Shown here piece by piece: positions 75 to 28,335 of a stretch of 28,335 nucleotides of DNA. The notes under the pieces are model-generated. The model was not told where the DNA came from, did no database searches, and was given only the letters and a program-made list of their open reading frames with translations. How positions within the stretch are numbered: position 1 is the first letter of the stretch; each line of letters opens with the position of its first letter. The translations under genes and the position numbers were made by a program. The stretch comes from a virus (lineage: Duplodnaviria > Heunggongvirae > Uroviricota > Caudoviricetes): IMG/VR virus record IMGVR_UViG_2737471849_000009. One strand, written 5' to 3'.

Positions 75-1361
75 TTACCCCGCTTTCTTATGGGGCATGC
101 ATGGGACACTTTCAGATAGTCTTCTGTTAAGAAGTTCTATTTGTTCGTGATTGTTGTCTTTCATCCATGCTCCGTAAACATTGAATACCATTTGTGCGTT
201 TGTGTGGCCCATCTGGCTCGCGATAAAACTAGGATTAGCTCCTGCGGCAAGTGACCAGCATGCATAGGTATGCCTGGATTGATACGATTTTCTGTGTCTC
301 AGACCTGCGCGTTTTAAGATACTTGTCCATGACTCCCTGATGGAGTCAACCTTATAGTGCGGTCCGGAAAACTGCCGTTGTTTTATTACCTGAGGACTAA
401 AAACAAAAGTGCATTTATGCACAGTACTTCTCCCATATTCCCTCTGCTTTACCTCTACAGAATGCTGTTTTCCAAGCATGGTCATTTCCGCTTGGCTTTT
501 AAGAGCATCAATAGCTGGTTGAACTAGATGAATCGTTCTTCCGGTACCAGCATCAGTTTTTGGTGGAGTGAATTCGCCTAGTTTTGTATAATTCCGGCGG
601 ATGGTTATAGTCCTCGCTTTAAGGTCTATATCTTCCCAGGCCAGTGATACCAGCTCCCCGTGACGAATACCCGTGTATACAGCGATAATCCACAGGTTTT
701 TTGTTTGTTGATGACGGCAAGCCTCAATAAAACGAATAAATTCGTCACGGGTGAGGGGATCTGGTTCTATCTTGGACTTTTTTAATGGTGTCAGACCGTT
801 AAATGGATTTCCTGATGTATAACCATTATCTGTTGCAAATTGAAACATTCCAGCTATGGTTGTCATATAGTAGTTTACTGTGACCACTGAGCGTCCTTTT
901 ATGGAAGAAATTTTTCCGTTAGAAAGCTTTTGATAACCGGTCAACAGATCTCTCCTTACGAAAAGCAAATCCTCTTTTGTTACAGATGAAACCAGTCTTT
1001 TTTCACCTAACATTGGCAACATGTTTTTAATTACTGACTGGTAACGGTTAAGTGCATTTGCACAAATCTCTATTTTCTTCAGTTCAAGCCATCTTTCCGA
1101 AAGTGCTTTAATGGTTATCTCTCTTTTCCCCAGACCAAAGTGTTTCAGGTTAGGGGACTCAGGGAACTGTGCTGCATAGTCGAAACTCCCCATTCTGATT
1201 GCAAAACAAACGGAAGTGCGGAGGTCACCTGCGATTTTCCGGTTTTTGGCGGTGTCAGGAACACCGAGGTTTTCTCTGACACGTTTGCCGTTATAGTGAA
1301 ACCATATGCGGAGTGATCCGCCATGATTTTCAACGCCTGTTGGGTATGATGTATTACTCAT
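75..1361 (-). CDS. int: Phage integrase, tyrosine recombinase (Rac IntR-like)
   Basis: 428-aa ORF with C-terminal catalytic signature (IRHGELVSLAWEDIDL; RHTYACWSLAAGANPSFIASQMGH; NVYGAW) and N-terminal arm-binding-like segment (GSLRIWFHYNGKRVRENLG); recalled similarity to E. coli Rac-type integrases; terminal position next to an excisionase-like gene. Confidence 0.9.
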   Translation of the reverse strand: MSNTSYPTGVENHGGSLRIWFHYNGKRVRENLGVPDTAKNRKIAGDLRTSVCFAIRMGSFDYAAQFPESPNLKHFGLGKREITIKALSERWLELKKIEICANALNRYQSVIKNMLPMLGEKRLVSSVTKEDLLFVRRDLLTGYQKLSNGKISSIKGRSVVTVNYYMTTIAGMFQFATDNGYTSGNPFNGLTPLKKSKIEPDPLTRDEFIRFIEACRHQQTKNLWIIAVYTGIRHGELVSLAWEDIDLKARTITIRRNYTKLGEFTPPKTDAGTGRTIHLVQPAIDALKSQAEMTMLGKQHSVEVKQREYGRSTVHKCTFVFSPQVIKQRQFSGPHYKVDSIRESWTSILKRAGLRHRKSYQSRHTYACWSLAAGANPSFIASQMGHTNAQMVFNVYGAWMKDNNHEQIELLNRRLSESVPCMPHKKAG

Positions 1362-2492: not shown

Positions 2493-3320
2493 TTATTTAA
2501 TCTGGATAAATGGTGTATTGGCACCACTGGTCATGTATTGCGGCAGTGTACCGTTCCACTTGTTGATGGCTTCCAGCTCCATGACGCCTGGGTTCTGGCG
2601 TAGAGCTTCGCCGCGTAAACGAATGGCATCGGCTTCTGCCTGGGCTTTTGTTCGAATGGCATCAGCCTGTCCGGCAGCTTCCGCACGTAGCATGTTGGCC
2701 TCCGCTTCACGTTGCTTGACTTCCTGCTCGCGCTGCAGGGTTTTCTGGTTTGCCGTGACTTTGGCATTAATGCTGTCGATAACGGTTGGCGGGTACTCCG
2801 GCTTACCCACATATGAGAGGCTCATTACCTGAATACCGATAGGTGTCATCTCTGCCTGAATGTCTTTAAGAGCTTCATCCAGCAGCTCAGACTTGCCGCC
2901 GTCGATAAATTTGTCAGTGGTCATTTGGCTGGCCAGTCGGTTGAGTGCGTCGGCGATCTTCTGGCGCAGGTCAGTGTCGGTAATGTCATCCACGCCTTTG
3001 CGGTAGGTCTGAAACACCGTGGTAACTTTGGATGGATCAACTTTGTAGGCCACGCCAATGTGATAGCCGATGGTTGTACCGTCACTCATCTGGAAACTGA
3101 ACGGTTCATCGTAGGTCTTCATTTGTTTGAAGGTGGGGAAGATATAAACTTCAGTATTCCAGCCAGTCCAGTAGCGACCAACACCGACCACCTCACCGAC
3201 GCCTTTGTCGTCGCCCAGTTTATTTACCTTGATGCCAACATTACCTGGTTCAACGCGATCGCAACCGACAAGGCCAATAGTCGGCAGAACAATGGCTAAA
3301 GCAAAAATAATTTTTTTCAT
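2493..3320 (-). CDS. SPFH/band-7 (prohibitin/HflC-like) family lipoprotein
   Basis: 275 aa; N-terminal signal peptide with lipobox LVGC; C-terminal Ala/Glu/Arg-rich coiled-coil segment (QREQEVKQREAEANMLRAEAAGQADAIRTKAQAEADAIRLRGEA) typical of SPFH proteins. Confidence 0.75.
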   Translation of the reverse strand: MKKIIFALAIVLPTIGLVGCDRVEPGNVGIKVNKLGDDKGVGEVVGVGRYWTGWNTEVYIFPTFKQMKTYDEPFSFQMSDGTTIGYHIGVAYKVDPSKVTTVFQTYRKGVDDITDTDLRQKIADALNRLASQMTTDKFIDGGKSELLDEALKDIQAEMTPIGIQVMSLSYVGKPEYPPTVIDSINAKVTANQKTLQREQEVKQREAEANMLRAEAAGQADAIRTKAQAEADAIRLRGEALRQNPGVMELEAINKWNGTLPQYMTSGANTPFIQIK

Positions 3321-3657: not shown

Positions 3658-3693
3658 GAAGAATTATATTCTTCTTAATATTTAATGTGTCAC
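3658..3693 (-). promoter_or_regulatory. Candidate promoter with palindromic operator (GAAGAAT-N3-ATTCTTC) overlapping a TATAAT -10
   Basis: Perfect 7-bp inverted repeat at 3658-3674; on the minus strand its centre reads TATAAT, with GTGACA about 19 nt upstream as a possible -35; sits just upstream of the membrane/SPFH genes. Confidence 0.4.
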
Positions 3694-4263
3694 TGGCGCT
3701 TCTGGCATACCATGAGTATTCAGGTCGTTCATCATTTCATCCAGAAGGAGTTCAAGCCCTTCGCGCCCCATAGCAGAAATAATGAAACCATTATCAGGAT
3801 CTGCGATGAGCATTTTTTGATAGAGAAACAGAACTCGCCCCATGCCTTCAGCTTCGCCATATTTTTCAATAAATCCCCATTCGACGTGGTTTTGCAGGGC
3901 AATACGAAGTGGTCCGGGGTAGATACTCAGGCAACCATGTTTACCCTTGTAAATAACCGCGTGATCTGTAGTTCCGTTATCGTTAGGGATATCAACGGTA
4001 CCGTTCTTGTCTTTCTCTTCATTTATAAACGTAGTCACATACAGCCATCGCCACTGAGCAACCTTCATATCGACTGAAAATCGTCCCAGCAACCCTGCAT
4101 CATCGGCTTCTGCAATACATTGCATGATTCTTAAACCGTGTGAGTTTGGATAATCGTATTCACCATCATTAAGCCGCTGTACGGCCTCAACATAATCAAT
4201 GGTTGTATTGCCAATTTTTATGCCATGTGGCGTAACTTCTGGTCGGAACTCTGAATGATTCAT
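3682..4263 (-). CDS. Hypothetical protein (193 aa from ATG 4261-4263)
   Basis: ORF 3682..4320 trimmed to the Met with AAGGAG 9 nt upstream; its start overlaps the stop of the upstream 62-aa ORF (TTATGA); no recognisable motif. Confidence 0.5.
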   Translation of the reverse strand: MNHSEFRPEVTPHGIKIGNTTIDYVEAVQRLNDGEYDYPNSHGLRIMQCIAEADDAGLLGRFSVDMKVAQWRWLYVTTFINEEKDKNGTVDIPNDNGTTDHAVIYKGKHGCLSIYPGPLRIALQNHVEWGFIEKYGEAEGMGRVLFLYQKMLIADPDNGFIISAMGREGLELLLDEMMNDLNTHGMPEAPVTH

Positions 4264-4448
4264 AATGTTTGCTCCTTTGCTGGTGGAATAATCGTGTAGC
4301 CAGCTCTTTTTGCCATCCACAGAAATGTATCCATGCAGCCAACGAATTCATTATCCAACAGATGTTTTGAGTAAATTACTTCACCATTTTCAATGGTTAG
4401 CAACACTCTTACTTTTTTATGTGTTATGTTTTGTTGTTTTTCTTTCAT
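4260..4448 (-). CDS. Hypothetical small protein (62 aa)
   Basis: ORF with GGAGA Shine-Dalgarno upstream of the ATG; translationally coupled to the downstream 193-aa gene. Confidence 0.45.
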   Translation of the reverse strand: MKEKQQNITHKKVRVLLTIENGEVIYSKHLLDNEFVGCMDTFLWMAKRAGYTIIPPAKEQTL

Positions 4449-4644: not shown

Positions 4645-4845
4645 TTATTGCGCTAATTCTTTTTTGACTGCAGCTTTCGAATATTCACATGCAAAAGACA
4701 GGATTTCATCACCTAATGTTTTTGCATTCTGATTATTTGACATCTGTAAAACTTGCGCAGCGCACAACAGACTATGAATGTTTATTGCAAATGAATTCGA
4801 TGCCAGACAAATACCTTCGAAATTGTCATGGATATTACTATTCAC
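4645..4845 (-). CDS. Hypothetical small protein (66 aa, GTG start)
   Basis: GTG start with AAGGAG 9 nt upstream that overlaps the stop codon of the preceding HTH gene. Confidence 0.4.
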   Translation of the reverse strand: MNSNIHDNFEGICLASNSFAINIHSLLCAAQVLQMSNNQNAKTLGDEILSFACEYSKAAVKKELAQ

Positions 4846-4850
4846 TGCTG

Positions 4851-5303
4851 TTACTCCTTTGCAGCATTGCTACCAGTCAATAACCACATCGGATCGCAGC
4901 CAAGAATATTTGCCAGTGGGATAAGCATACTGATAGTTGGTTCATACTCTCCGCTCTCCCACTGGATGATGATTTCTTCATCAAGAGCGAGCAGCCTGGC
5001 GAGTTCGGCTGTTGTTAAGCCGCAGGCTTCGCGTTGGGTGCGAAGGTTAACCAGCCAGCTTTCAGGGAAGGATTGTTTTTGTTGTGCAGGAGAAGCAGCA
5101 GATAGAGCATATTCATGGATAAATTCCATTACCTCAATGCCCAGTTCCTTTGAGCGAGCACAATCCAGAAGATGGAATGTGCGTACAGCACTTAGCAAAT
5201 TTGCAATATTTAATGCAAAGGAATCAAGTTCTAAGCCCTTAAGCGTAACACAGCCGCAGTTGATAAAATTAGTTGTTTCTGGAGTTGCTTTTAGTGTCTT
5301 CAT
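4851..5303 (-). CDS. HTH (XRE-type) domain protein with uncharacterised N-terminal domain
   Basis: 150 aa; C-terminal segment LTTAELARLLALDEEIIIQWESGEYEPTISMLIPLANILGCDPMWLL matches the XRE helix-turn-helix pattern; first gene after the pL-like promoter. Confidence 0.55.
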   Translation of the reverse strand: MKTLKATPETTNFINCGCVTLKGLELDSFALNIANLLSAVRTFHLLDCARSKELGIEVMEFIHEYALSAASPAQQKQSFPESWLVNLRTQREACGLTTAELARLLALDEEIIIQWESGEYEPTISMLIPLANILGCDPMWLLTGSNAAKE

Positions 5304-5356
5304 ATATCCACCAACAATTTTAAATTGAATTAAATCAAGTTATAATTGATGGTGCG

Positions 5357-5385: not shown

Positions 5386-5412
5386 GAAAAAATTGATATC
5401 GTATATTTCAGG

Positions 5413-5438: not shown

Positions 5439-5449
5439 AAAATCAAAGA

Positions 5450-6139
5450 CTAACCAAATCTGTTTATGTTGAATGGTACTGATGAGATCACTTTAGACTG
5501 GATATAAAGCAGAGCTAACCCCTCTTTTTCGATGCTCCATGGTTGATAATTGGGGTTATCAGATAACACCATGATTTTGCTTCCAATTTTTTGAAGCCTT
5601 TTCACGTAGCATTCTCCATCAAAACAAAATGCATAAATACCATCGCCATCAAAATAAGTTACTGTCTTATCAAGAAAAAGAAGGTCGCCAGGTGAGATTG
5701 TGGGAGCCATACTGTCTCCTCTGGCGTTACCTATTTCTATATTTTTGAATGCCCGATTTCCAACAAGACGTCGGGCATATTCAGGATCAAGTTCTATTGA
5801 GCGCACTACATCTATCAAGTCACCACGGACATGAGTTCCATCACCGCAACTGAACTCAACATCAAGGACATTAAACACGACGCTATCTGTTCTTGTCTGG
5901 TGTTTCTCTGGCGAGGAGAAGGTCGGTGAGGGGTCTTCACCTAAGAACCAGGATTGTGGATAACCGCTAATCTCTGATAACTGCGCAAGCTTATCACTCC
6001 GTGGAAATGTCTTTCCTGTTGTCCAGTACTGCACTGATTGCGCACTCACACCTAACTTACGGGCCAGTTGAGCTTGAGTCCATCCTTTTGCTTTCAGCAT
6101 CGCGGCTATACGATTTTCCGTGTTTTTGACGTTCTTCAT
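5450..6139 (-). CDS. cI: CI-like prophage repressor (HTH plus LexA-like S24 peptidase domain)
   Basis: 229 aa; N-terminal HTH (WTQAQLARKLGVSAQSVQYWTTGK); C-terminal peptidase motifs GDSMAPT (Ser) and VKRL (Lys); divergent from a Cro-like gene. Confidence 0.85.
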   Translation of the reverse strand: MKNVKNTENRIAAMLKAKGWTQAQLARKLGVSAQSVQYWTTGKTFPRSDKLAQLSEISGYPQSWFLGEDPSPTFSSPEKHQTRTDSVVFNVLDVEFSCGDGTHVRGDLIDVVRSIELDPEYARRLVGNRAFKNIEIGNARGDSMAPTISPGDLLFLDKTVTYFDGDGIYAFCFDGECYVKRLQKIGSKIMVLSDNPNYQPWSIEKEGLALLYIQSKVISSVPFNINRFG

Positions 6140-6272: not shown

Positions 6273-6572
6273 ATGAAAGGAAATGATTACGACAAACTTC
6301 GTACATTAATTGCGCAAAATGCCATAGCGCGAAATCTTGGTGTGACGCCGCAAGCGGTGAATCAGTGGTTTTCAAAAAACACAATTCCTGCTCGTTTTGT
6401 TTTACGCGTATGTGAAGTAGTTGCATGGAAGGTCACGCCACATGGCTTAAGGCCAGATCTTTATCCTCACCCTGAAGATGGAATTCCTGATTCGTTACGC
6501 AAAATTTCAAATCCAAGCCTAGCGCGCACGGAAGATGGGCAGAGTGATTCATCAGAAATGTCCACGCGATGA
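6273..6572 (+). CDS. Cro-like HTH regulator (YdaS-type)
   Basis: 99 aa; HTH segment IARNLGVTPQAVNQWFSKNTIP; divergent from cI across the operator region. Confidence 0.65.
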   Translation: MKGNDYDKLRTLIAQNAIARNLGVTPQAVNQWFSKNTIPARFVLRVCEVVAWKVTPHGLRPDLYPHPEDGIPDSLRKISNPSLARTEDGQSDSSEMSTR

Positions 6573-6648
6573 ACGGTTACTGAACGAAAAAAGAAAAGCC
6601 GGGCCGCACTCCGTCAGCCCGACTTATTCTGATTAGTAAGGGGATTTC

Positions 6649-7509
6649 ATGATGATCAATAAACAAAAATTAGTCAACCCTGAAAACCTGCCAGTGATTG
6701 AGTGGCAGGGGGTACGCGTAGTTACCACTGAAACGCTGGCGGCGGGATATGGCACGGATGAAGCTAATATCCGTAAAAATCTGTCGCGCAATCTTGAGCG
6801 CTTTGAAGATGGGAAACATTATTTTCTTTTAACTGGTGATGCCCTGAAAGCATTTAAGGACAGAGTGACTATTGGTCACTCTGTTGGAAGAAATGCGCGT
6901 TCACTCACTCTCTGGACAGAACGCGGCGCTGCCCGCATGTCAAAAATCGTCGATACAGACGAGGCCTGGTCGTTCTTCGAAAAAATGGAGCAGGCGTATT
7001 TTCGTAAAGCAACGCCTTCTTCAAACACTATTCCAGACTTTGACGATCCGATCGCTGCTGCTGAAGCGTGGATTGAAGCCAAAAAATCCGAACGCCTTGC
7101 TCTCGGGTATGCAGAGCGTCAGGCTCGCTACATCAGCAAACTCGAAAGCCATCTCGCCGATGGCATCACTCCTGTGCAGTTCTGCAAACAACTCAACGGT
7201 GTAAACACTCGTCAGATTAATGCGTTCCTTGAAGAGCGTAACTGGCTGTATGACGACCGTCCGGAGGCTATGTATCCGCGCTGGCGTGTAAAAGCGTATG
7301 CACGTGACCAATACCTGACTGAGCGTTCTGGGCAGGTTGAGCAGGAAAACGGGGAAATACGCGAGATTTTCAAACCACTCCTGAAGAAAAAAGGTGCCGC
7401 CTGGTTATATCGCCATTATCTGAACGGTGAACTACCGATGAAGAAAACATGGGATGGGCTGTTTACCCATAACACTGAGCTCGCGAATCTTTTACAGGAG
7501 AACAAATAA
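6649..7509 (+). CDS. Antirepressor (ORF6N-type N-terminal domain plus Ant/KilA-C-like C-terminal domain)
   Basis: 286 aa; N-terminal domain (LPVIEWQGVRVVTTETLAAGYG ... LTLWTERGAARMSKIVDTDEAWSFFEKMEQAYF) is paralogous to ORF 13301..13789; longer C-terminal domain typical of phage antirepressors. Confidence 0.75.
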   Translation: MMINKQKLVNPENLPVIEWQGVRVVTTETLAAGYGTDEANIRKNLSRNLERFEDGKHYFLLTGDALKAFKDRVTIGHSVGRNARSLTLWTERGAARMSKIVDTDEAWSFFEKMEQAYFRKATPSSNTIPDFDDPIAAAEAWIEAKKSERLALGYAERQARYISKLESHLADGITPVQFCKQLNGVNTRQINAFLEERNWLYDDRPEAMYPRWRVKAYARDQYLTERSGQVEQENGEIREIFKPLLKKKGAAWLYRHYLNGELPMKKTWDGLFTHNTELANLLQENK

Positions 7510-15577: not shown

Positions 15578-15928
15578 ATGCCATCACAAATCCCTCGTGC
15601 ATGCCGTAAGCGAGGCTGTGCAGGCACAACGACGGACAGTTCGGGCTACTGCGATAAGCATCGCGGCGAAGGTTGGACACAACATCAACGCGGACTGAGC
15701 CGCCACCAGCGTGGCTATGGCTCGAAATGGGATGCCATACGTGCGCGCATACTGAAGCGTGATAATCATTTGTGTCAGAACTGCCTGCGCAATGGGAGAG
15801 CCGTTGAAGCCAGAACTGTGGACCACATCATTCCGAAAGCGCATGGCGGTACGGATGCAGACGGTAATCTGCAGAGCCTGTGCTGGCCATGCCACAAGGA
15901 GAAAACAGCGCGTGAACGCATCAACTGA
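15578..15928 (+). CDS. HNH endonuclease (terminase-associated type)
   Basis: 116 aa from ATG 15578 with GAGGAG Shine-Dalgarno; HNH motif DHIIPKAHGGTDADGNLQSLCWPCHKEKT; cysteine pairs CRKRGC and CQNC; directly upstream of terS. Confidence 0.8.
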   Translation: MPSQIPRACRKRGCAGTTTDSSGYCDKHRGEGWTQHQRGLSRHQRGYGSKWDAIRARILKRDNHLCQNCLRNGRAVEARTVDHIIPKAHGGTDADGNLQSLCWPCHKEKTARERIN

Positions 15929-16076
15929 TAATCGTTCTCATCTGTAAGGGAGGGGCGGGTCAAATCTCTGCAACCCTGGCTGCTCAGTACCGCCGCCTGA
16001 CCCTTCCTCACATCGCCGCAGGTTCGAAAACTTTTTTTTGGAAATGTGAACAAACGATTGATAGGTAAGACCGATT

Positions 16077-16559
16077 ATGTCAGGACCTCCGAAAACCCCG
16101 CCAGGCCTGCATTTGATACGAGGCAACCCCTCAAAGCGTCCCGTTAAAGACCACAAAAAAACCGCTAAAAAGGATGAAAAAGGTCTTCCTAAAATTCCGC
16201 AGCATTTAGGGGCTCAGGGGAAGTACTGGTTCAGGCGAATGGCGGAAGAGCTGAATGCGGAAGGGATCATTTCTCAGCTTGATGCACGTGCGCTCGAGTT
16301 GCTGGTGGAAGCCTACACCGAATATCGGCATCACTGCGAAACACTCGATGTTGAGGGGTATACTTACCGCACGGAAACGCAGAGCGGTGATGTACTGATT
16401 AAGGCGCACCCCGCGGCGGCAATGAAAGCGGATGCCTGGAAGCGGATCCGGGCAATGCTTGCAGAGTTTGGTATGTCACCGGCAAGCCGGGCTAAAGTAA
16501 ATATCGCCGGACCGGATGATGTTGATCCGCTGGCGGAGCTTTTAAAAGCGAGAGACTGA
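16077..16559 (+). CDS. Terminase small subunit (P27-family-like)
   Basis: 160 aa basic protein directly upstream of and overlapping the large terminase start (TGATGG); position and size. Confidence 0.7.
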   Translation: MSGPPKTPPGLHLIRGNPSKRPVKDHKKTAKKDEKGLPKIPQHLGAQGKYWFRRMAEELNAEGIISQLDARALELLVEAYTEYRHHCETLDVEGYTYRTETQSGDVLIKAHPAAAMKADAWKRIRAMLAEFGMSPASRAKVNIAGPDDVDPLAELLKARD

Positions 16560-18316
16560 TGGCAAAAGTGGCTGACGGGATCCGCTACGCCGAACGTGTT
16601 GTTGCAGGAGAAATTGTTGCTGGCGAATTTGTCCGCCTGGCCTGCCAGCGTTTTCTTGATGATCTGAAGTACGGCGAAGAGCGGGGGATTTATTTCAGTG
16701 AACCCCGTGCGCAGCACATCCTGAATTTCTACAAATTTGTGCCTCATGTAAAAGGGGCGCTGGCAGGCCAGCCCATTGAGTTGATGGACTGGCATGTATT
16801 TATCCTCATTAATATTTTTGGTTTTGTCATTCCGCTGGTCAATGAAGAGACCGGGGAAGTTGTCATGCGCAGCGATGGCAGCGGACGTCCGGTGATGGTG
16901 CGCCGGTTCCGGACGGCGTACAACGAAGTCGCCCGTAAAAACGCAAAATCAACTCTGTCATCGGGTATCGGCCTGTATATGACGGGGGCAGATGGTGAAG
17001 GCGGAGCTGAGGTGTATTCAGCCGCAACCACGCGTGACCAGGCCAGAATCGTGTTTGAAGACGCCAAAAATATGGTCAGAAAAGCCCGGTCGACACTCGG
17101 GCGGTTGTTTGATTTCAACAAGCTGGCGATTTACCAGGAGCAGAGCGCATCAAAATTTGAACCGCTTTCTTCGGATGCAAACAACCTGGATGGTCTGAAC
17201 ATTCACTGCGCCATTATTGATGAGCTGCATGCACATAAAACCCGTGACGTGTGGGACGTTCTGGAAACGGCAACCGGTGCTCGTCTGCAGTCCCTTTTAT
17301 TTGGTATCACCACGGCAGGGTTTAACAAGGAAGGGATTTGTTACGAGCAGCGTGATTACGCCATCAAGGTATTGCGTGGCTATAACAGCGACGTGGAGGG
17401 CGCGGTAAAAGACGACTCCTACTTTGCGATTATTTACACCCTCGATGAGGGAGATGATCCGTTTGATGAAACGGTCTGGCAGAAAGCGAATCCCGGCCTG
17501 GGCATCTGTAAACGCTGGGATGATCTGCGTCGCTTGGCGAAAAAAGCGAAAGAACAGGTCTCTGCACGGGTGAATTTTTTTACCAAACACATGAATGTGT
17601 GGGTAACAGCAGAGTCTGCCTGGATGGACATGATTAAGTGGGAGAAGTGCGAATACATTGCCCCACGACATGAGCTGAAAACGTATCCCATGTGGGTCGG
17701 CGTTGACCTTGCTCATAAGATTGATATCTGTGCGGCGGCAAAACTCTGGCGAACGGATAACGGGCATGTTCATGCCGATTTTAAATTCTGGCTTCCGGAA
17801 GGACGGCTGGAACGATGCTCGCGGCAGCAGGCAGAACTTTACCGGAAGTGGGCGGAGATGGATAAGCTGATTCTGACGGATGGTGATGTTATCGATCATG
17901 CTCAGATAAAAAGTGACTTACTGGAATGGATTGGTGGTGAAAACCTCAGGGAACTGGGATTTGACCCGTGGAGCGCGATGCAGTTCAGCCTGGCACTGGC
18001 TGAAGAAGGGATACCGCTGGTGGAGGTTCCGCAGACGGTTCGCAATCTGTCAGAGGCCATGAAGGAAACGGAATCACTGGTCTATGCCGGGCGTTTCCAT
18101 CACAGCAATCATCCGGTCATGAACTGGATGATGTCTAACGTTACGGTAAAACCGGACAAAAACGACAATATCTTCCCGAATAAATCCACGCTGGAAGCCA
18201 AAATCGACGGTCCTGTTGCGATGTTTACAGCAATGAGCCGGATGCTGGTCAATGGCGGTGAACCGGAGCCGGATCTGTCTGAGCATCTGGTCAGCGTTGG
18301 TATCCGCTCGCTTTAA
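16559..18316 (+). CDS. Terminase large subunit
   Basis: 585 aa; N-terminal ATPase region and C-terminal nuclease-like region with conserved acidic residues ([15 protein letters not shown]); downstream of HNH and TerS. Confidence 0.9.
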
Positions 18317-18327
18317 CCGAGGTCATT

Positions 18328-18510
18328 ATGTTTCTGATAATTCTCACGCCACTGGTGGGCGTGCTGGGGGCGCTTTTGCTGTCGTATGGCACATGGCTGA
18401 TTTATCCCCCGGCAGGTTTTGTTGTTGCCGGGGGGCTGTGCCTGTGCTGGTCGTGGCTGGTTGCGCGTTATCTCGATCGTGGTCACCGGGTCGCCTCCGG
18501 AGGTGAGTAA
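18328..18510 (+). CDS. Small membrane protein (60 aa, two predicted TM helices)
   Basis: GAGGT Shine-Dalgarno 6 nt upstream of the ATG; stop overlaps the next start (TAATG); occupies the position where a portal gene is expected. Confidence 0.3.
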
Positions 18511-18737
18511 TGTTTTTCCAGGGGCTTTTTCAACGTAAAAATAATACCCCCGTCACAACGCCCGGGATGCTTGCGGAAGAACTTGGGTTGTCATACGACA
18601 CCTATACCGGACTGCAACCTGTATTTTCAGAGGATGATCGTGAACAGGTGATTGCCGTGTATGGCCCGGTGCATGCGCGGCTTCTTCGGCAGTCTCTGGA
18701 ACTGATCAGTGATGCCGGCGAGGTTAAAAAAAAGTAG
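18510..18737 (+). CDS. Tail assembly chaperone G-like (short; possibly truncated)
   Basis: 75-aa ORF ending in the slippery run GTT AAA AAA AAG TAG, directly upstream of a T-domain ORF in the -1 frame. Confidence 0.5.
   Translation: MFFQGLFQRKNNTPVTTPGMLAEELGLSYDTYTGLQPVFSEDDREQVIAVYGPVHARLLRQSLELISDAGEVKKK
18728..18734 (+). other. Candidate -1 programmed ribosomal frameshift heptamer A_AAA_AAG
   Basis: X_XXY_YYZ heptamer in the G frame 1 codon before the stop; the -1 frame opens at 18728 and is continuous with ORF 18749..19039. Confidence 0.55.
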
Positions 18738-18748
18738 CGCTTCCGGGG

Positions 18749-19039
18749 ATGCGTTTTCTGATGATGCTGGCACTCAGGATGGGGCGCACATTGTCAGAGT
18801 TACGCCGGGAAATGTCCGCATCAGAAATCATGATGTGGGCAGAATTTGACAGGTTCAGCCCGCTGGGGGACGAACGGGCTGATATCCGGGCTGCCCAGAT
18901 TGTTTCAGCTGTTTACGGTGCGCAGGGTGTCAAAGTACCACTGAATGATGCGCTTCTTCAGTGGGAGCATGAATCAGAAGAAAATAAATGCGATGATCCA
19001 TTTATTGGATTAGAGGTTGCTCTAATGTCTTCACTATAA
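18749..19039 (+). CDS. Tail assembly chaperone T domain (expected as a G-T fusion via -1 frameshift)
   Basis: 96-aa ORF (MRFLMMLALRMGRTLSELRREMSASEIMMWAEFDRFSPLGDERADIRAAQIVSAVYGAQGVKVPL) resembling recalled minor tail protein T sequences; frame is -1 relative to G. Confidence 0.6.
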   Translation: MRFLMMLALRMGRTLSELRREMSASEIMMWAEFDRFSPLGDERADIRAAQIVSAVYGAQGVKVPLNDALLQWEHESEENKCDDPFIGLEVALMSSL

Positions 19040-19097
19040 GATAATTTTTTAATCGTTTTGAAATTGAATGCTTTACTCAAAGTCAGGAGGATTAATC

Positions 19098-19439
19098 ATG
19101 AGAAAATCAGTGGTGACATTAGCTTGTTTGTTTTTTATTAGTGCATGTAAGCCATCAGATAATTATGTTATTTCTTTAGGGGAAAACTTAGTTAAAGATA
19201 AGCTTATTGATCCTGATAGTGCAAAATTTAATTCTTTTTTTCATAAGTCAGGTGATTTATATGGTTATGTTTGTGGTGATGTTAATTCAAAAAACACGTT
19301 TGGTGGATATACAGGGAAAAAGCCATATTTTGTTTATTTGGAAGTTGTGGATGGAAAAGTTAAGAGTCATGGGACTGTAACAATTGTTAATGATCATGAT
19401 CCAAGCAGTATGGAAAAATATAAGTTGTTTTGCCAATAA
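19098..19439 (+). CDS. AT-rich moron lipoprotein (113 aa)
   Basis: ATG 19098 with AGGAGG Shine-Dalgarno; signal peptide with lipobox ISAC; markedly AT-rich codons compared with flanking tail genes; own terminator downstream. Confidence 0.6.
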   Translation: MRKSVVTLACLFFISACKPSDNYVISLGENLVKDKLIDPDSAKFNSFFHKSGDLYGYVCGDVNSKNTFGGYTGKKPYFVYLEVVDGKVKSHGTVTIVNDHDPSSMEKYKLFCQ

Positions 19440-19449
19440 TTATCATCTT

Positions 19450-19475
19450 AAAAAACCGCAGAAGCGGTTTTTTTA
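19450..19475 (+). terminator. Intrinsic terminator after the moron lipoprotein gene (bidirectional shape)
   Basis: A5-CCGC-agaa-GCGG-T7 hairpin 11 nt after the lipoprotein stop and 14 nt before the tape measure start. Confidence 0.55.
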
Positions 19476-19488
19476 TGGGGTAAAGTAA

Positions 19489-22400
19489 ATGGCGACATTA
19501 CGTGAGCTGATTATTAAAATCTCGGCAAATTCCCGGTCATTCCAGTCAGAGATCTCCCGGGCTTCGCGTATGGGGCAGGATTACTACCGTACCATGCAGA
19601 ACGGAGGCCGGCAGTCCGCTGCTGCATCCCGTGAAATGCGGCGTGCACTGGCAGAAGTGACGGATCAGATAAATACAGCTAAATCTTCGGCACTGAATAT
19701 GGCGGGGGCATTTGCCGGGGCTTTTGCTACCGGTCATCTTATTTCTCTCGCCGATGAGTGGAATTCAGTAAATGCCCGTCTGAAGCAGGCCTCACAGTCC
19801 ACTGATGATTTTCAGGTATCACAACGTGAATTAATGGCAATCAGCCAGAGAACGGGAACGGCGTTTTCTGATAACGCCAGCCTTTTTGCCCGCTCTGCAG
19901 CTTCCATGCGGGAGTATGGCTACAGTTCTGAGGAGGTACTGAAAGTCACCGAGGCTATCTCCACGGGCCTGAAATTATCCGGTGCCAGTGCAGCAGAAGC
20001 CAGTTCGGTGATCACGCAGTTCAGTCAGGCACTGGCGCAGGGAGTGCTGCGCGGTGAAGAATTTAACTCTGTGAATGAGAACGGCGATCGTGTTATTCGT
20101 GCGCTGGCTGCGGGAATGGGTGTTGCCCGTAAGGATCTGAAGGCCATGGCGGATAACGGAAAGTTGACCGCCGATAAGGTTGTTCCTGCACTGATTAGTC
20201 AGCTTGGGGCGTTGCGTGATGAATATGCAGCAATGCCTGATACGGTTTCATCCTCTGCAACCAAAGTTGAAAACGCCTTTATGGCCTGGGTTGGTGGTGC
20301 GAACGAAGCAAGCGGAGTGACGAAGACGCTCTCCGGTGTGCTGAATGGTATTGCAGGCAATATTGACACTGTGGCAACCGCTGCCGGTGCTCTGGTTGCC
20401 GTCGGGGTAGCCCGATATTTTGGCAATATGGCATCTTCTGCTGGATCTGCAACTGCCGGATTAATTACTGCAGCCAGAAACGAAGTAGCTCTTGCGGAAG
20501 CGCAGCTCCGGGGGACGCAGATAGCAACCGCCAGGGCGCGTGCGGCGGTTTATCGTGCGCAACAGGCGGTCGCGGCTACCCGTGGTACTGAAAGACAGGC
20601 AGCCGCAGAAGCGAAACTGGCTGCTGCCCAGGCATCACTTACCCGTAATATTGCGGCCAGAACAGCAGCACAGACAACGCTGAATACTGTCACGTCAGTG
20701 GGGAGTCGTTTATTAAGTGGTGCGCTGGGGCTGGTTGGTGGTGTGCCGGGACTCGTCATGCTGGGGGCGACGGCCTGGTACACGATGTATCAGAATCAGG
20801 AGCAGGCCAGAGAATCTGCACGCCAGTATGCCGCAACAATCGACGAAATTCGCCAGAAAACGTCGGCAATGTCGCTTCCTGAAGCGTCAGATAATGAGGA
20901 AAAGACGCGGCAGGCACTGGAGGAACAAAATCGCCTGATTAACGAACAGGAAGGAAAAATTCGCGGACTGAAAAATCAAATTGCTGATTATCAACGTTGG
21001 CTTGATGAAAGTTCGCAGAGTGGTTCTGGTGCTGAAATCATCCTTAAAGGGCTTGCAGAAGCAACAAATCAACTGGCAGTTGAACAGTCCCGTCTCACAC
21101 AAATGCAGGGCAAAGCGCAATCCATTCAGGATGTGCTTGCCGGGCTGGAGGAGCGACGAGTGGCGTTGATCCGTCAACAGGCAGCGGAACAAAACAAAGC
21201 GTATCAGTCCCTGTTGATCATGAATGGGAAGCATACCGAGTTTAATCGCCTTCTCGGGCTTGGTAATGAATTACTTCAGCAGCGACAGGGGCTGGTGAAT
21301 GTACCGTTACGGCTACCACAGGCAACTCTGGATGATAAACAGCAGACCGCACTGAATAACAGCAAGCGCGAACTGGCTCTGTCCCGCCTTAAGGGGGAAG
21401 CGCGTGAGCGTGCCCGACTGGGCTATGCTGCGGATGATCTCGGCTTTGTGGGAGAGGCGTATCGGACAGCCAGACAGAATTATATCAATAACTCACTGGA
21501 TGCCTGGCGAAATAACCAGGCAAATAAACCCAAAGCGCATAAAAAGACCGAAGCGGAAAAAACAGAAGATATTTATAAACGGCTGATTAAACAGCAAAAA
21601 GAACAGATAGCACTGGCAGGGCAGAATACTGAACTGGCTAAGATGAAATATCAGGTCAGTCAGGGCGAATTATCAACCCTGTCAGAAGCGCAGAAAAAAA
21701 CGCTTTTGCAGAATGCAGCACTCATCGACCAGAAAAAGATTCGTGAGCAGCTTGCCGCGTATGAAAGCAGTCTGGCGGACAGTAATGCCAGTGCCCGGGC
21801 ATCTGACGACGCGCAGTTGCTGGGATATGGTGAAGGCTCACGGATGCGTGAACGACTCCAGGAAATGTGGAGTATCCGGCATGAGTTTGAGCAGAAAAAT
21901 AACGAGCTGCTGAGACAGTATCAGGCCGGAGAAATTGAAGAAGCCCTGTGGAAACAGGAGAAAGAACTGAATAAAAAATATCTGGAAGAGCGTCTCAGCG
22001 ATCAGCAGGATTATTATGCAAAGGCCGATGCTTTACGTAATAACTGGAATGCCGGACTCCAGGAGGGACTGACCAACTGGGCAGACAGTGCCACCGATTA
22101 TGCTTCACAGGCGGCAGATGCTGTTGTTTCCACGATGGACGGGCTGGTATCAAATATTTCCGATGCACTGGCCGGGAATGTTGTGGAGTGGAGGAACTGG
22201 GGGAGTTCAGTTCTCCGGGAAGTTTCAAAAATTCTGATGAATGCGGCCATTGTTAACGGACTGAAGTCACTCTCCGGTGCCGGAGGGTGGCTTGGTACGG
22301 TCGGCGGATGGATTTCGGGGGCGGTGGCAAACGCAAAAGGTGGTGTTTACACATCGGCAAATCTGAGTGCTTACAGTAACACTATTGTGGATACACCGAC

Positions 22401-22689
22401 GTATTTTGCTTTTGCGAAAGGTGCCGGGCTGATGGGCGAGGCCGGGCCTGAAGCTATCATGCCACTGACACGGGCAGCGGACGGCTCTCTTGGGGTCAGA
22501 GCCATTGGCAATGTGAATGGTGGCGGTGGATTTGTTTATTCTCCCGTGTATCACATTAGCATTCAGAATCAAGGGAGCAATGGCGAGATAGATACGCGCT
22601 CAGCCAGGGGACTGGTGGATCTGATCGACAGCAGGGTTGTGTCAATTATGCAGTCATCGCGTCGGGATGGAGGATTATACAGTGCCTGA
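19489..22689 (+). CDS. H: Tail tape measure protein
   Basis: 1066 aa, Ala/Gln-rich coiled-coil protein; C-terminal segments (NWADSATDYASQAADAV ... RRDGGLYSA) parallel lambda gpH; followed by M, L, K, I, J. Confidence 0.9.
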   Translation: MATLRELIIKISANSRSFQSEISRASRMGQDYYRTMQNGGRQSAAASREMRRALAEVTDQINTAKSSALNMAGAFAGAFATGHLISLADEWNSVNARLKQASQSTDDFQVSQRELMAISQRTGTAFSDNASLFARSAASMREYGYSSEEVLKVTEAISTGLKLSGASAAEASSVITQFSQALAQGVLRGEEFNSVNENGDRVIRALAAGMGVARKDLKAMADNGKLTADKVVPALISQLGALRDEYAAMPDTVSSSATKVENAFMAWVGGANEASGVTKTLSGVLNGIAGNIDTVATAAGALVAVGVARYFGNMASSAGSATAGLITAARNEVALAEAQLRGTQIATARARAAVYRAQQAVAATRGTERQAAAEAKLAAAQASLTRNIAARTAAQTTLNTVTSVGSRLLSGALGLVGGVPGLVMLGATAWYTMYQNQEQARESARQYAATIDEIRQKTSAMSLPEASDNEEKTRQALEEQNRLINEQEGKIRGLKNQIADYQRWLDESSQSGSGAEIILKGLAEATNQLAVEQSRLTQMQGKAQSIQDVLAGLEERRVALIRQQAAEQNKAYQSLLIMNGKHTEFNRLLGLGNELLQQRQGLVNVPLRLPQATLDDKQQTALNNSKRELALSRLKGEARERARLGYAADDLGFVGEAYRTARQNYINNSLDAWRNNQANKPKAHKKTEAEKTEDIYKRLIKQQKEQIALAGQNTELAKMKYQVSQGELSTLSEAQKKTLLQNAALIDQKKIREQLAAYESSLADSNASARASDDAQLLGYGEGSRMRERLQEMWSIRHEFEQKNNELLRQYQAGEIEEALWKQEKELNKKYLEERLSDQQDYYAKADALRNNWNAGLQEGLTNWADSATDYASQAADAVVSTMDGLVSNISDALAGNVVEWRNWGSSVLREVSKILMNAAIVNGLKSLSGAGGWLGTVGGWISGAVANAKGGVYTSANLSAYSNTIVDTPTYFAFAKGAGLMGEAGPEAIMPLTRAADGSLGVRAIGNVNGGGGFVYSPVYHISIQNQGSNGEIDTRSARGLVDLIDSRVVSIMQSSRRDGGLYSA

Positions 22690-23023
22690 GCCTGAAGTTT
22701 TTAACTGGATCCCCCGTGAGGGGATGGAGACGACACGAAAGCCATCAGTTATTACGGTAAAGTTTGGTGACGGATATGAACAGCGACGGGCTGGTGGGCT
22801 GAATGCGGATCTGAAAACGTTTAAACCGGTATTTCGTGTCACAGATGAATACTCCCGTGCCGCGCTGGACAGTTTTTTATCCCGTCATGCCGGGATTCGT
22901 GCTTTTTTGTGGCGCCCGCCAAAACACAACAGGACTGTCCGGGTTGTCTGCAGGGAGTGGAGCATTTCGGATAATGCCATGTATACCGATTTTAACTGTA
23001 CCTTTGAAGAGGTCACTCACTGA
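22667..23023 (+). CDS. M: Minor tail protein M
   Basis: 118 aa from ATG 22667 (overlaps the end of H); KFGDGYEQRRAGGLNADLKTFKPVF matches lambda gpM RFGDGYSQRAPAGLNANLKTY. Confidence 0.8.
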   Translation: MEDYTVPEPEVFNWIPREGMETTRKPSVITVKFGDGYEQRRAGGLNADLKTFKPVFRVTDEYSRAALDSFLSRHAGIRAFLWRPPKHNRTVRVVCREWSISDNAMYTDFNCTFEEVTH

Positions 23024-23721
23024 TGCAGGATATACAGCAGGAAACACTCAATGAGTGCACTAAAACGGAGCAATCCGCGCTGGTCGTGCTCTGGGAAATT
23101 GATCTGACAGAGGTCGGCGGAGATCGTTACTTTTTCTGCAATGAGCAGAACGAAAAAGGTGAACCAGTCACCTGGCAGGGGCGGCAGTATCAGGCCTATC
23201 CCATTCAGGGAAGTGGATTTGAGATGAACGGCAAAGGAGCCAGTGCAAGGCCAACGCTGAAAGTCTCTAATCTGCACGGCATGGTCACCGGGATGGCGGA
23301 AGACCTGCAGAGTCTGGTCGGCGGAACGGTGGTCCGGCGTAAGGTTTACGCCCGTTTTCTGGATGCGGTGAACTTCGTCAACGGAAACAGTGACGCCGAT
23401 CCGGAGCAGGAGGTGATCAGCCGCTGGCGCATCGAGCAGTGCAGCGAACTGAGCGCGGTGAGTGCCTCCTTTGTACTGTCCACGCCGACGGAAACGGATG
23501 GCGCTGTTTTTCCGGGGCGTATCATGCTGGCCAACACCTGCACCTGGACCTATCGCGGTGATGAGTGCGGTTATCACGGTCCGGCAGTCGCGGATGAATA
23601 TGACCAGCTGACGTCCGATACCACGAAAGATAAATGCAGCAAATGCCTGAGTGGCTGTAAGTTTCGCAATAACGTCGGCAACTTTGGCGGCTTCCTTTCC
23701 ATTAACAAACTTTCGCAGTAA
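23023..23721 (+). CDS. L: Minor tail protein L
   Basis: 232 aa, near-identical by recall to lambda gpL over its whole length (MQDIQQETLNECTKTEQSALVVLWEIDLTEVGG ... CSKCLSGCKFRNNVGNFGGFLSINKLSQ). Confidence 0.9.
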   Translation: MQDIQQETLNECTKTEQSALVVLWEIDLTEVGGDRYFFCNEQNEKGEPVTWQGRQYQAYPIQGSGFEMNGKGASARPTLKVSNLHGMVTGMAEDLQSLVGGTVVRRKVYARFLDAVNFVNGNSDADPEQEVISRWRIEQCSELSAVSASFVLSTPTETDGAVFPGRIMLANTCTWTYRGDECGYHGPAVADEYDQLTSDTTKDKCSKCLSGCKFRNNVGNFGGFLSINKLSQ

Positions 23722-23725
23722 ACCC

Positions 23726-24469
23726 ATGACAGAAACAGAATCAGCGATTCTGGCGCACGCCCGGCGATGTGCGCCAGCGGAGTCGTGCGGCTTCGTGGTG
23801 AGAGCGCCGGAGGGGGAAAGATATTTTCCCTGCATGAATATTTCCGGTGAGCCGGAGGGTTATTTCCGGATGTCGCCGGAAGACTGGCTGCAGGCAGAAA
23901 TGCAGGGTGAGATTGTGGCGCTGGTCCACAGCCACCCCGGTGGTCTGCCCTGGCTGAGTGAGGCCGACCGGCGGCTGCAGGTGCAGAGTGATTTGCCGTG
24001 GTGGCTGGTCTGCCTGGGCGTGATTCACAAGTTCCGCTGTGTGCCGTATCTCACCGGGCGGCGCTTTGAGCACGGAGTGACGGACTGTTACACGCTGTTC
24101 CGGGACGCTTACCATCTGGCGGGAATTGAGATGCCGGATTTTCACCGCGAGGATGACTGGTGGCGTCACGGTCAGAATCTCTATCTTGACAATATGGAGG
24201 CAACGGGTTTTTACCGTGTCGCACTGACAGAGGCGCAGCCGGGCGACGTGCTGCTGTGCAGCTTTGGTTCATCGGTGCCGAATCATGCTGCCATTTACTG
24301 CGGCGACGGCGAGCTGCTGCACCATATTCCTGAACAACTGAGTAAACGAGAGAGGTACACCGACAAATGGCAGCGACGCACACACTCCCTCTGGCGTCAC
24401 CGGGCATGGCACGCATCTGCCTTTACGGGGATTTGCAACGATTTGGCCGCCGCATTGACCTTCGTGTGA
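23726..24469 (+). CDS. K: Tail assembly protein K (JAB/MPN plus NlpC/P60-like)
   Basis: 247 aa from ATG 23726; MTETESAILAHARRCAPAESCGFVV ... HSHPGG (JAMM-like) ... NHAAIYCGDGELLHHI closely parallels lambda gpK. Confidence 0.85.
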   Translation: MTETESAILAHARRCAPAESCGFVVRAPEGERYFPCMNISGEPEGYFRMSPEDWLQAEMQGEIVALVHSHPGGLPWLSEADRRLQVQSDLPWWLVCLGVIHKFRCVPYLTGRRFEHGVTDCYTLFRDAYHLAGIEMPDFHREDDWWRHGQNLYLDNMEATGFYRVALTEAQPGDVLLCSFGSSVPNHAAIYCGDGELLHHIPEQLSKRERYTDKWQRRTHSLWRHRAWHASAFTGICNDLAAALTFV

Positions 24470-25014
24470 AAACGGGGGCTGAAGCCATCCGGGCGCTGGC
24501 CACACAGCTCCCGGCGTTTCGTCAGAAACTGAGCGATGGCTGGTATCAGATACGGATTGCCGGGCGTGATACAGGTGAAAACGAATTATCAGCCCGTCTG
24601 AATGAGCCGCTGGAAAATGGTGCCGTGATCCACATCGTACCGCGTCTGGCGGGTGCTAAAAGTGGCGGTATTTTTCAGGCAGTGCTGGGGGCGGCGCTGA
24701 TTGCGGTTGCATGGTGGAACCCTGTGGGCTGGCTGGGGGCCGCGGCTGTATCGGGTATGTATGCGGCAGGGGCCAGTATGATCCTGGGCGGTGTGGCGCA
24801 GATGCTGGCCCCCAAACCCAGAACCCCCCGAACACAGACAACGGATAACGGTAAGCAGAACACCTATTTCTCCTCACTGGATAACATGGTTGCCCAGGGC
24901 AATGTTCTGCCTGTTCTGTACGGTGAAATGCGCGTGGGGTCACGCGTGGTTTCTCAGGAGATCAGCACGGCAGACGAAGGGGACGGTGGTCAGGTTGTGG
25001 TGATTGGTCGCTGA
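24367..25014 (+). CDS. I: Tail assembly protein I
   Basis: 215 aa; N- and C-terminal regions (MAATHTLPLASPGMARICLYGDLQRFGRRIDLRVKTGAEAIRALATQLPAFRQKLSDGWYQ ... KQNTYFSSLDNMVAQGNVLPVLYGEMRVGSRVVSQEISTADEGDGGQVVVIGR) match lambda gpI. Confidence 0.85.
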   Translation: MAATHTLPLASPGMARICLYGDLQRFGRRIDLRVKTGAEAIRALATQLPAFRQKLSDGWYQIRIAGRDTGENELSARLNEPLENGAVIHIVPRLAGAKSGGIFQAVLGAALIAVAWWNPVGWLGAAAVSGMYAAGASMILGGVAQMLAPKPRTPRTQTTDNGKQNTYFSSLDNMVAQGNVLPVLYGEMRVGSRVVSQEISTADEGDGGQVVVIGR

Positions 25015-25033
25015 TGCAAAATGTTTTATGTGA

Positions 25034-25060
25034 AACCGCCTCAGGGCGGTTTTGTCGTTT
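25034..25060 (+). terminator. Hairpin with short T-tract between I and J (possible attenuator)
   Basis: AACCGCC-tcag-GGCGGTT followed by TTTTG; sits between the I stop and the J start. Confidence 0.35.
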
Positions 25061-25074
25061 ATGGAGCGTGAGGA

Positions 25075-28000: not shown

Positions 28001-28335
28001 TCACGATTAATGAGAACTGTCAGATTCTGGGAAAACTGTCAGCTATTCAGATTGAAGGCGATATTGTTAAAACGGTGGGTAAGGCTTTCCCCCGTGACTC
28101 CCGGGCACCGGAGCGGTGGCCATCAGGGACCATTACCGTCAGGGTTTATGACGATCAGCCTTTTGACCGGCAAATTGTCATTCCGGCGGTGGCATTCAGC
28201 GGTGCCAGACATGAGAGAGAGCATAATGACATTTATTCATCATGCCGTCTGATAGTGCGGAAAAACGGTGCTGAAATTTATAACCGTACCGCGCTGGATA
28301 ATACGCTGATTTATACCGGTGTGATTGATATGCCA
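25075..28335 (+). CDS. J: Host specificity/central tail fibre protein J (partial; continues beyond window end)
   Basis: Open frame from ATG 25075 to the window edge; N-terminus [54 protein letters not shown] and long internal stretches match lambda gpJ; long minus-strand ORFs here are antisense shadows. Confidence 0.9.

Follow-up and report, generated by a model that had tools for sequence, protein, structure and literature searches.

Lysogens are known to owe some of their phenotypes to morons, extra genes that phages carry in their tail operons and most of which are uncharacterised. The term was first used for gene 15 of phage HK97, which is located between the tail chaperone and the tape-measure genes, and the encoded protein gp15, which the prophage expresses, prevents genome entry in a tail-dependent way (PMC3594210). 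In phage T5 the lipoprotein Llp, which faces the periplasm from the outer membrane and contains an internal disulfide, jams the receptor FhuA (deposited as 8A60; PMC9586334). In the Streptococcus thermophilus phage TP-J34 the prophage lipoprotein Ltp binds the tape-measure protein of the incoming phage and blocks DNA injection (PMC3952083). The gene analysed here encodes a predicted lipoprotein of 113 residues and lies between the tail assembly gene T and the tape-measure gene in a stretch of 28,335 nucleotides of a tailed phage (Caudoviricetes; IMG/VR record IMGVR_UViG_2737471849_000009), which is referred to as the window in the following. New is the protein family to which it belongs, a lipoprotein family without Pfam model, annotation or tested member, within a known kind of element, and of all results the most interesting is how often its members recur next to the tape-measure gene.

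A lipoprotein gene between T and the tape-measure gene

A preliminary description, drawn from the letters of the window alone, had claimed a 113-residue lipoprotein gene with the ribosome-binding site AGGAGG and the lipobox ISAC in the gap between T and the tape-measure gene. All of these were located at that place (Table 1), and the position in the gap was confirmed by the Pfam matches of both neighbours (PF06223 for T). The precursor begins with MRKSVVTLACLFFISA followed by the cysteine, that is, with a charged N-region, a hydrophobic core and the lipobox I-S-A-C, and the lipoprotein-signal pattern [LVI][ASTVI][GAS]C is found within the first ~35 residues (MRK-SVVTLACLFF-ISA before C17). In an alignment of 10 orthologues A16, C17, K18, P19 and S20 are invariant. 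By the established rules for lipoboxes and lipoprotein sorting a lysine at position +2 predicts Lol-dependent transport to the outer membrane, and we infer that the protein is an outer-membrane lipoprotein anchored in the inner leaflet and facing the periplasm.

The codons had been called very AT-rich, and the windowed calculation of the guanine-plus-cytosine (GC) content bears this out. The open reading frame (ORF) of the lipoprotein has a GC content of 0.304 and of 0.193 at third codon positions (GC3), as compared to 0.523 and 0.494, respectively, for the tape-measure gene, and the flanks have 0.52-0.54. Over the whole window the mean is 0.498 with a standard deviation of 0.062; the lowest value of any 450-bp segment, 0.298, is found at position 19001, and elsewhere the minimum is 0.342. 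The AT-rich region had been given as 19040-19476, but its limits are wider, extending from position 18967 inside T to the start of the tape-measure gene at 19489. Gene T itself has a GC content of 0.537 before position 18967 and of 0.329 after it, and its last ~24 codons (18967-19039) belong to the AT-rich block. In an alignment that took in the Escherichia coli strains Ecol_656 and AVS0655, in which the slot is empty, and PK8241, in which it is occupied, homology to the empty-slot relatives breaks after position 18966 within T and returns at the start codon of the tape-measure gene. The distance from the T stop codon to the tape-measure start is 46 nucleotides in Ecol_656 and AVS0655, which lack the lipoprotein gene, versus 449 nucleotides here. 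With crossovers in T and at the tape-measure start, the block reads as a replacement of the 3' end of T together with the 46-nucleotide spacer, and thus it looks like the product of recombination with another phage rather than of a simple insertion.

Matches to the T gene were found by megablast in 900 of 5426 complete E. coli genomes, whereas the lipoprotein block is present in 18, always in the chromosome, in 11 cases with at least 99% identity and in 7 with 92.9%. In two intact prophages HK97-type head genes are followed, in this order, by G, T, a gene for a 113-residue hypothetical protein and the tape-measure gene. An extra gene therefore separates two genes that are adjacent in relatives, and its composition is unlike that of its surroundings, so that the gene is classed, by comparison of these genomes, as cargo (a moron) in the canonical slot between T and the tape-measure gene of a prophage with HK97-type head and lambda-type tail. 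The preliminary description had taken it for a horizontally acquired moron. That it is extra, compositionally foreign and absent from close relatives stands, but recent acquisition gives an incomplete account, since more distant orthologues share the slot. Orthologues with 58% and 48% identity, from Citrobacter and further Enterobacterales, occupy this gap as well, are likewise AT-rich (0.35-0.36 versus 0.49-0.56) and are followed by a hairpin. Because these orthologues share both slot and AT-richness, recent acquisition is apparently only part of the story and the gene appears as a long-standing mobile resident of the slot.

The allele of PK8241 (92.9% identical) differs from the gene of the window by 16 synonymous and 6 non-synonymous codons, giving proportions of synonymous (pS) and non-synonymous (pN) differences of 0.235 and 0.022, respectively; the 6 replacements are grouped in the signal peptide and one loop. 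The resulting pN/pS of ~0.09 indicates a real gene under purifying selection.

Two other readings of the gene were considered and rejected. An alternative start at 19068 would yield a protein of 123 residues; it has no ribosome-binding site, the orthologues use the downstream methionine, and RefSeq annotates the 113-residue form. An o-spanin of the Rz1 type is contradicted by the distance of the gene from the lysis cassette, by the fact that it is not embedded in another gene, and by the globular fold that is predicted for its product.

A hairpin that belongs to the junction

Between the lipoprotein gene and the tape-measure gene the preliminary description had seen the gene's own hairpin terminator. 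A strong hairpin with a T-run is indeed present (Table 1), which folds at -15.3 kcal/mol (z = -4.6; 0 of 200 shuffled sequences fold as well), but it cannot be assigned to the gene, as the same element occurs in relatives without it. In the E. coli relatives with empty slot the same stem with its T-run (AACCGC-TTCG-GCGGTTTTTTTT) stands immediately ahead of the tape-measure gene, and HK97 (after gene 15), ES18 (after gene 20) and Citrobacter-type prophages likewise have a hairpin with T-run in front of that gene. Since it is present in relatives with or without the lipoprotein gene, the hairpin is, as far as these comparisons go, a property of the junction between T and the tape-measure gene and not of the cargo. 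In the HK97-type tail modules compared it is located at ~1800-1830 (L004), 1599-1623 (L010), 4321-4342 (L007) and just after 6342 (L011 and L014). A terminator-like hairpin inside a late operon may limit read-through in the lysogen, may set the dosage of the tape-measure protein, or may serve as a recombination landmark for the exchange of cargo.

An automated terminator scan did not report the hairpin at 19450-19474, we think because the stem was extended into the A/T runs, leaving too few T residues afterwards. A reading of this region as small RNA was rejected, as Rfam yielded sub-threshold matches only, namely isrK, a small RNA of Salmonella prophages, at 17.6 bits (E 0.38) where the gathering score is 50. 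This match, at 19405-19474 on the plus strand, takes in the hairpin and reaches into the 3' end of the gene; in all likelihood it is due to chance and driven by the stem.

The protein and its family

Cleavage before Cys17 would give a mature protein of 97 residues with a computed mass of 10.8 kDa and an isoelectric point of 7.0. Homology searches, which the preliminary description had left to later work, place the protein in phrog_2320 (E 2e-33; residues 1-113 against positions 19-138 of the 171-position profile), a family of unannotated function, and reveal gp20 of the Salmonella phage ES18 as a homologue. The matches in PHROG comprise phrog_2320 and five other families, all of unknown function; no family was found in Pfam at E<=0.01 nor even at E<=10, none in NCBIfam, and a phmmer search against all PDB chains gave 0 matches at E<=10.

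A model calculated with AlphaFold2 from 10 orthologues (mean pLDDT, the predicted local distance difference test score, 86.2; pTM, the predicted template-modelling score, 0.74) consists of a helix (residues 21-33), four antiparallel strands (38-50, 55-65, 75-84 and 87-91) and a C-terminal helix (102-112), and the predicted fold is a small cystatin/NTF2-like domain. A Foldseek search of this model against PDB returned nothing better than E 0.04. Fold matches in BFVD are to uncharacterised phage proteins with E about 1e-5 to 1e-4, among them "Lipoprotein [Gordonia phage Sidious]" and a protein of Rhodobacter phage RcSpartan, and are generic. Across 33 diverse members D38, P39, C59, N66, G69, Y71, G73 and C112 are invariant and S41, A42, F44, G60, V62, N63 and K65 nearly so, resulting in the family motif DPxSAxF ... 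CGxVNxKNxxGGYxG plus a C-terminal cysteine. Among the retrieved proteins with the xCG motif 215 of 241 have a cysteine within the last 25 residues, and a lipobox-like motif is found in 171 of 255 retrieved family members. As both cysteines are conserved and the location is predicted to be periplasmic, a putative disulfide between C59 and C112 would tie the last helix to the sheet.

The family is large. A profile search of 1.84 billion cluster representatives yielded 8473 matches at E<=1e-3, a count that may include some signal-peptide-driven matches, 292 at E<=1e-10 and 6 at E<=1e-30, and the source names of the 120 relatives listed are all 'hypothetical protein' or 'lipoprotein'. The paper on Tai (tail-assembly interference) was consulted and is unrelated. 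Matches by tblastn were found in 38 phage records, of which the named ones are lambdoid, P2-like or prophage-derived; none of these matches is in a virulent phage. Gp20 of ES18, annotated as 'possible moron', is a family member encoded directly upstream of the tape-measure gene, and the ES18 record gives the label "possible moron" to gp18, gp19 and gp20, all in this slot. In the phages Fraca and LMessi (55% identity) the gene lies between tail genes K and I, with a second gene for a lipoprotein behind it. The product of this second gene (MKKIILPIFIFLLMGC...; phrog_914, function unannotated) is unrelated, and the gene begins within ~10 nucleotides, creating a tandem cargo pair (LMessi 5920-6609, Fraca 4001-4690, also in loci L023-L025).

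One genome per species was taken, 80 loci in all, and the two immediate neighbours of each family gene were scanned against Pfam. The sample spans alpha-, beta- and gamma-proteobacteria, Campylobacter, Bacteroidetes, Planctomycetes and Verrucomicrobia. The commonest neighbours are the tape-measure families TMP_2 (8 loci) and TMP_3 (7), followed by HTH_3 (6), Peptidase_S24 (4) and NlpC_P60 with JAB, corresponding to tail protein K (4). Minor tail proteins, T, a tail chaperone family, integrase and terminase are rarer, and ordinary chromosomal families occur too. Immediately downstream of the family gene, 15 of these loci have an ORF of at least 2.3 kb on the same strand, as compared to 4 with such an ORF immediately upstream. 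Among the best 80 loci in IMG/VR, a sample biased to close relatives of the query, the tape-measure gene lies just downstream in 25 and just upstream in 5, and K is located upstream in 13. Four distant members, picked for their long contigs, are all found in prophages. The first lies between the tape-measure gene and M and another immediately behind the tape-measure gene, a third is part of a myovirus baseplate module with a Fic/Doc gene next to it, and the fourth is located directly downstream of an S24 repressor on the same strand. In the P2-like phages SEN4 and SEN5 the family gene sits between ogr and int, at the P2-type prophage end. Taken from these neighbourhoods, the family appears as a recurrent cargo of temperate phages that clearly favours positions flanking the tape-measure gene.

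A C-terminal SPOR domain, which binds septal peptidoglycan, was seen in P0040, P0066, P0204, P0216, P0219 and P0225 and in phage AUS531phi. Such fusions hint that the family domain works at the cell wall. P0029 contains two tandem family domains.

What could the lipoprotein do?

How might such a protein act? By analogy to described systems it is quite possible that it blocks incoming phages at the envelope as a periplasm-facing outer-membrane lipoprotein, a proposal that we make tentatively and prefer to the alternatives discussed below. After lipidation at Cys17 the protein would, owing to the lysine at +2, be sorted by the Lol pathway and reach the inner leaflet of the outer membrane, from where a 97-residue cystatin/NTF2-like domain, consisting of a helix, a four-stranded sheet and a helix, would be displayed in the periplasm. 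The disulfide Cys59-Cys112 would staple this domain, and the invariant motif DPxSAxF ... CGxVNxKNxxGGYxG would lie on its surface. It could be imagined that the domain binds an outer-membrane receptor from the periplasmic side, as Llp does. Alternatively, it could interfere with the step at which the tape-measure protein and the tail tip open the periplasmic route for the DNA, as proposed by analogy to HK97 gp15 and Ltp. The protein would act in the lysogen, if the gene is transcribed there, and also late in lytic growth by read-through of the tail operon. Such read-through may be taken as given, the gene being part of the tail operon and having the same orientation. Moreover, some family members follow a repressor gene, which argues that at least part of the family works in lysogens. 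In a Caballeronia sp. locus (4205-7177) an S24 cI-type repressor gene, a family member on the same strand, and genes for HipA_2 and DUF3037 follow one another, which suggests that the family gene is co-transcribed with the repressor gene in lysogens.

Several observations speak against a block of phage entry. No characterised family member was found in the literature, and the defence-protein models of PADLOC-DB v2 gave 0 families at E<=1. For Llp there is neither a sequence match in PDB (8A60) nor a fold match, the sequences of Cor not having been compared directly, and homology or fold matches to Ltp or gp15 were not found either. The preliminary description had further assumed expression from the prophage; upstream of the gene on the plus strand no sigma-70-like site with at least 9 of 12 matching positions is present, the best being TTGCTC-17-GATAAT with 8 of 12 at 19017-19045. 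For HK97 gp15, whose expression from the prophage is established, the same scan also gives only 8 of 12, and because this positive control scores no better the scan has no discriminating power; in 25 family loci 1 site of at least 9 of 12 was found versus 2.8 expected by chance from shuffled sequences. Furthermore, the family motif is conserved from Campylobacter to Enterobacterales, and such conservation across phyla would be less expected if the target were a receptor such as FhuA or LamB than if it were phage-borne or an envelope ligand of universal occurrence. Members in non-phage contexts or fused to SPOR also occur, and the domain may thus have a general envelope role unrelated to phage exclusion. 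The adjacency to the tape-measure gene, finally, may reflect a permissive insertion site and not a functional link.

A more far-reaching version of the entry block, which we consider doubtful, would make the whole family widespread, so far unrecognised blockers of phage entry in Gram-negative bacteria, that is, tape-measure-linked outer-membrane lipoproteins acting on the tape-measure and tail-tip step of delivery. If this were true, the family would be a functional counterpart of Ltp in Gram-negative bacteria and an outer-membrane partner to HK97 gp15, and the hairpin-marked junction would serve as a site dedicated to the exchange of exclusion genes that match the tail.

The protein could instead be a fitness or virulence factor of lysogenic conversion like Bor, which would alter envelope traits of the lysogen such as serum resistance, adhesion or stress tolerance and leave phage entry unaffected. 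A small lipoprotein of outer-membrane type on a prophage is what would be expected in this case, and some family members are found beside the repressor gene or at prophage ends, where conversion genes lie. The carrier strains come from human, cattle, chicken and environmental sources, and the family also occurs outside prophages and in SPOR fusions. Yet even at E<=10 there is no match to Lambda_Bor or any other Pfam family, the presence of the family in soil, marine and plant-associated bacteria gives no link to animal hosts, and the strong bias to slots in the tail module would be left unexplained, so that a Bor-type function is unlikely.

That bias would be accommodated by a late helper of the phage's own lytic cycle without any role in the lysogen, which could bind peptidoglycan or another part of the envelope and thereby aid tail penetration, release or lysis, or could mark lysing cells and spare the loss of progeny on debris. 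The latter version overlaps with the 'lytic conversion' by Llp. Consistent with a late function the gene is located inside the late tail operon and no promoter of its own was detected, leaving read-through as the only expression that can be assumed; a location next to K, baseplate genes or the tape-measure gene is frequent in the family, and the fusions to SPOR direct attention to the cell wall. We nevertheless regard such a helper as quite unlikely, given that the gene is dispensable (18 genomes versus 900 with the T gene), that some members occupy lysogeny-side positions, after the repressor gene or between ogr and int, and that the matching records include no virulent phage. Improbable is also a periplasmic inhibitor or immunity protein whose cystatin-like domain would neutralise a peptidoglycan hydrolase, a protease, a bacteriocin or an effector of the type VI secretion system. 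A functionless hitch-hiker, that is, an AT-rich remnant carried along by recombination at the junction, would agree with the rarity of the gene in E. coli (18/5426 genomes), the lack of a detected promoter and the defective state of the window's prophage, but is scarcely credible in view of the purifying selection (pN/pS ~0.09), the full-length ORF with lipobox and both cysteines kept down to 48% identity in the same slot, and the motifs that are invariant across phyla.

If the lipoprotein is an entry blocker, it would represent a new and common class of proteins for superinfection exclusion, would matter for predicting prophage-conferred resistance in phage therapy, and would explain why the junction is a hot spot for cargo. 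If its role in the envelope is a different one, a so far undescribed ligand-binding module of the periplasm is suggested by the conserved motif together with the SPOR fusions.

State of the prophage and other genes in the window

Positions 13551-28316 of the window are 100% identical to a prophage of E. coli E21845/O/A (NZ_CP076272 2434287-2458735) apart from two deletions. The first, of ~0.98 kb at 15237-15238, takes away the 3' part of a holin gene, a further holin gene, the M15 endolysin gene and the start of a small gene. The second, of ~5.5 kb at 18604-18611 with an 8-bp overlap at the junction, extends from codon ~34 of the portal gene through the first ~80 codons of G and takes with it the genes for protease, capsid, connector, tail completion and tail tube. 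Because these genes are lost, the prophage as it stands in the window is predicted to be unable to lyse its host or to assemble heads and tail tubes, but T, the lipoprotein and tape-measure genes and the tail tip have been retained. The fusion junction was found in 0 of 5426 complete E. coli genomes. The fusion ORF created by the larger deletion (Table 1) matches only positions 82-124 of PF06222, and the slippery heptamer A_AAA_AAG (18728-18734), which would shift G into the frame of T by -1, is intact just before the TAG at 18735.

The small hydrophobic protein encoded between the terminase large subunit and portal genes matches phrog_502, whose category is 'moron, auxiliary metabolic gene and host takeover: membrane protein'; its gene is not AT-rich (GC about 0.58) and is present in intact relatives. 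On the lysogeny side, between the integrase and the cI-type repressor genes, the gene of the SPFH/Band-7 protein and two ORFs without Pfam match are candidates for further cargo; after the lipoprotein region, the part of the window in which they lie is the richest in AT (GC 0.39-0.41). Over its last 300 residues J shares 77-94% identity with J proteins from the phage collection, among them that of a lambda variant, which gave no receptor assignment.

Table 1. Features of the window, ordered by position.
Feature	Position	Strand	Remarks
Integrase	75..1361	-	
SPFH/Band-7 protein gene	2493..3320	-	
ORF without Pfam match	3682..4320	-	
ORF without Pfam match	4828..5328	+	
cI-type repressor	5450..6139	-	
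Gene for 60-aa hydrophobic protein	18328-18510	+	between terminase large subunit and portal; phrog_502, E 1.2e-24
75-aa G-like ORF	18510-18737	+	fusion of the first ~34 portal codons and the last ~42 G codons, from the 5.5-kb deletion
Tail assembly protein T	18749..19039	+	PF06223 E 3.4e-18; phrog_337/phrog_14766 'tail'; -1 frame relative to the upstream G-type ORF
AT-rich divergent block	18967..19488	.	GC 0.307; from alignment with Ecol_656, AVS0655 and PK8241 and from composition
Shine-Dalgarno sequence AGGAGG	19085-19090	+	7 nt before the ATG; kept in the PK8241 allele
Lipoprotein gene	19098..19439	+	113-aa precursor; 342 bp; sole convincing gene in 19040-19476
Predicted signal peptide (aa 1-16) with lipobox I14-S15-A16	19098..19148	+	Cys17 codon 19146-19148; Lys at +2
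Cys59 codon	19272..19274	+	invariant in 33 diverse members; putative disulfide partner of Cys112
Cys112 codon	19431-19433	+	invariant in 33 diverse members
Hairpin AAAAAACCGC-AGAA-GCGGTTTTTT(T) and T-run	19450-19474	+	G+C-cored; 14 nt before the tape-measure ATG
Tape-measure protein gene	19489..22689	+	1066 aa; PF20155, PF06120, PF09718; right-hand neighbour defining the slot

Comparison with known systems

The preliminary description had named Cor/Llp-like exclusion factors and Bor/Lom-like fitness factors as possible relatives. Neither a sequence nor a fold relation to them was found, so that the likeness is one of class only, namely of small envelope lipoproteins from the tail region. Bor and Lom of phage lambda are prophage-encoded envelope proteins regarded as morons, and Bor is an outer-membrane lipoprotein, whereas Lom is a β-barrel and not a lipoprotein and both genes are found in other genomic positions; the Pfam families Lambda_Bor (PF06291) and Ail_Lom gave no match even at E<=10. 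Llp and Cor (T1, phi80, N15) are likewise small phage lipoproteins encoded among tail or receptor-binding genes. With Llp the protein described here would share the outer-membrane location and the disulfide, both of which are predicted in its case, but mature Llp has 61 residues as compared to 97, and no annotated PHROG or Pfam link to Llp or Cor was found. A mechanism specific for FhuA is unlikely, because the family spans several bacterial phyla. Ltp provides the nearest mechanistic precedent linking a lipoprotein with the tape-measure protein, although it is unrelated in sequence, is anchored in the cytoplasmic membrane of a Gram-positive host and is encoded in the lysogeny module.

The genomic arrangement is best matched by HK97, where the record gives the order T, gp15 ("moron product"), putative terminator and H. 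In both cases T is followed by the cargo, a hairpin with T-run and the tape-measure gene, and in both cases the cargo is an extra gene that is missing from relatives and encodes a small envelope protein. The two proteins are not homologous, as gp15 matches phrog_5031 only and the lipoprotein matches phrog_2320 and not phrog_5031. Moreover, gp15 is a YebO-like single-pass protein of the inner membrane with 62 residues and a tested function, as opposed to the predicted outer-membrane lipoprotein of 113 residues encoded here. In gp20 of ES18 place and protein come together. It is longer (151 residues), has an extra N-terminal linker, shares ~41% identity in the core, is encoded by a gene with a GC content of 0.40 and is one of three consecutive putative morons, but its domain is homologous (tblastn E 1e-7), it is a lipoprotein as well (…LTAC), and its gene lies directly upstream of the tape-measure gene with a terminator-like hairpin after it.

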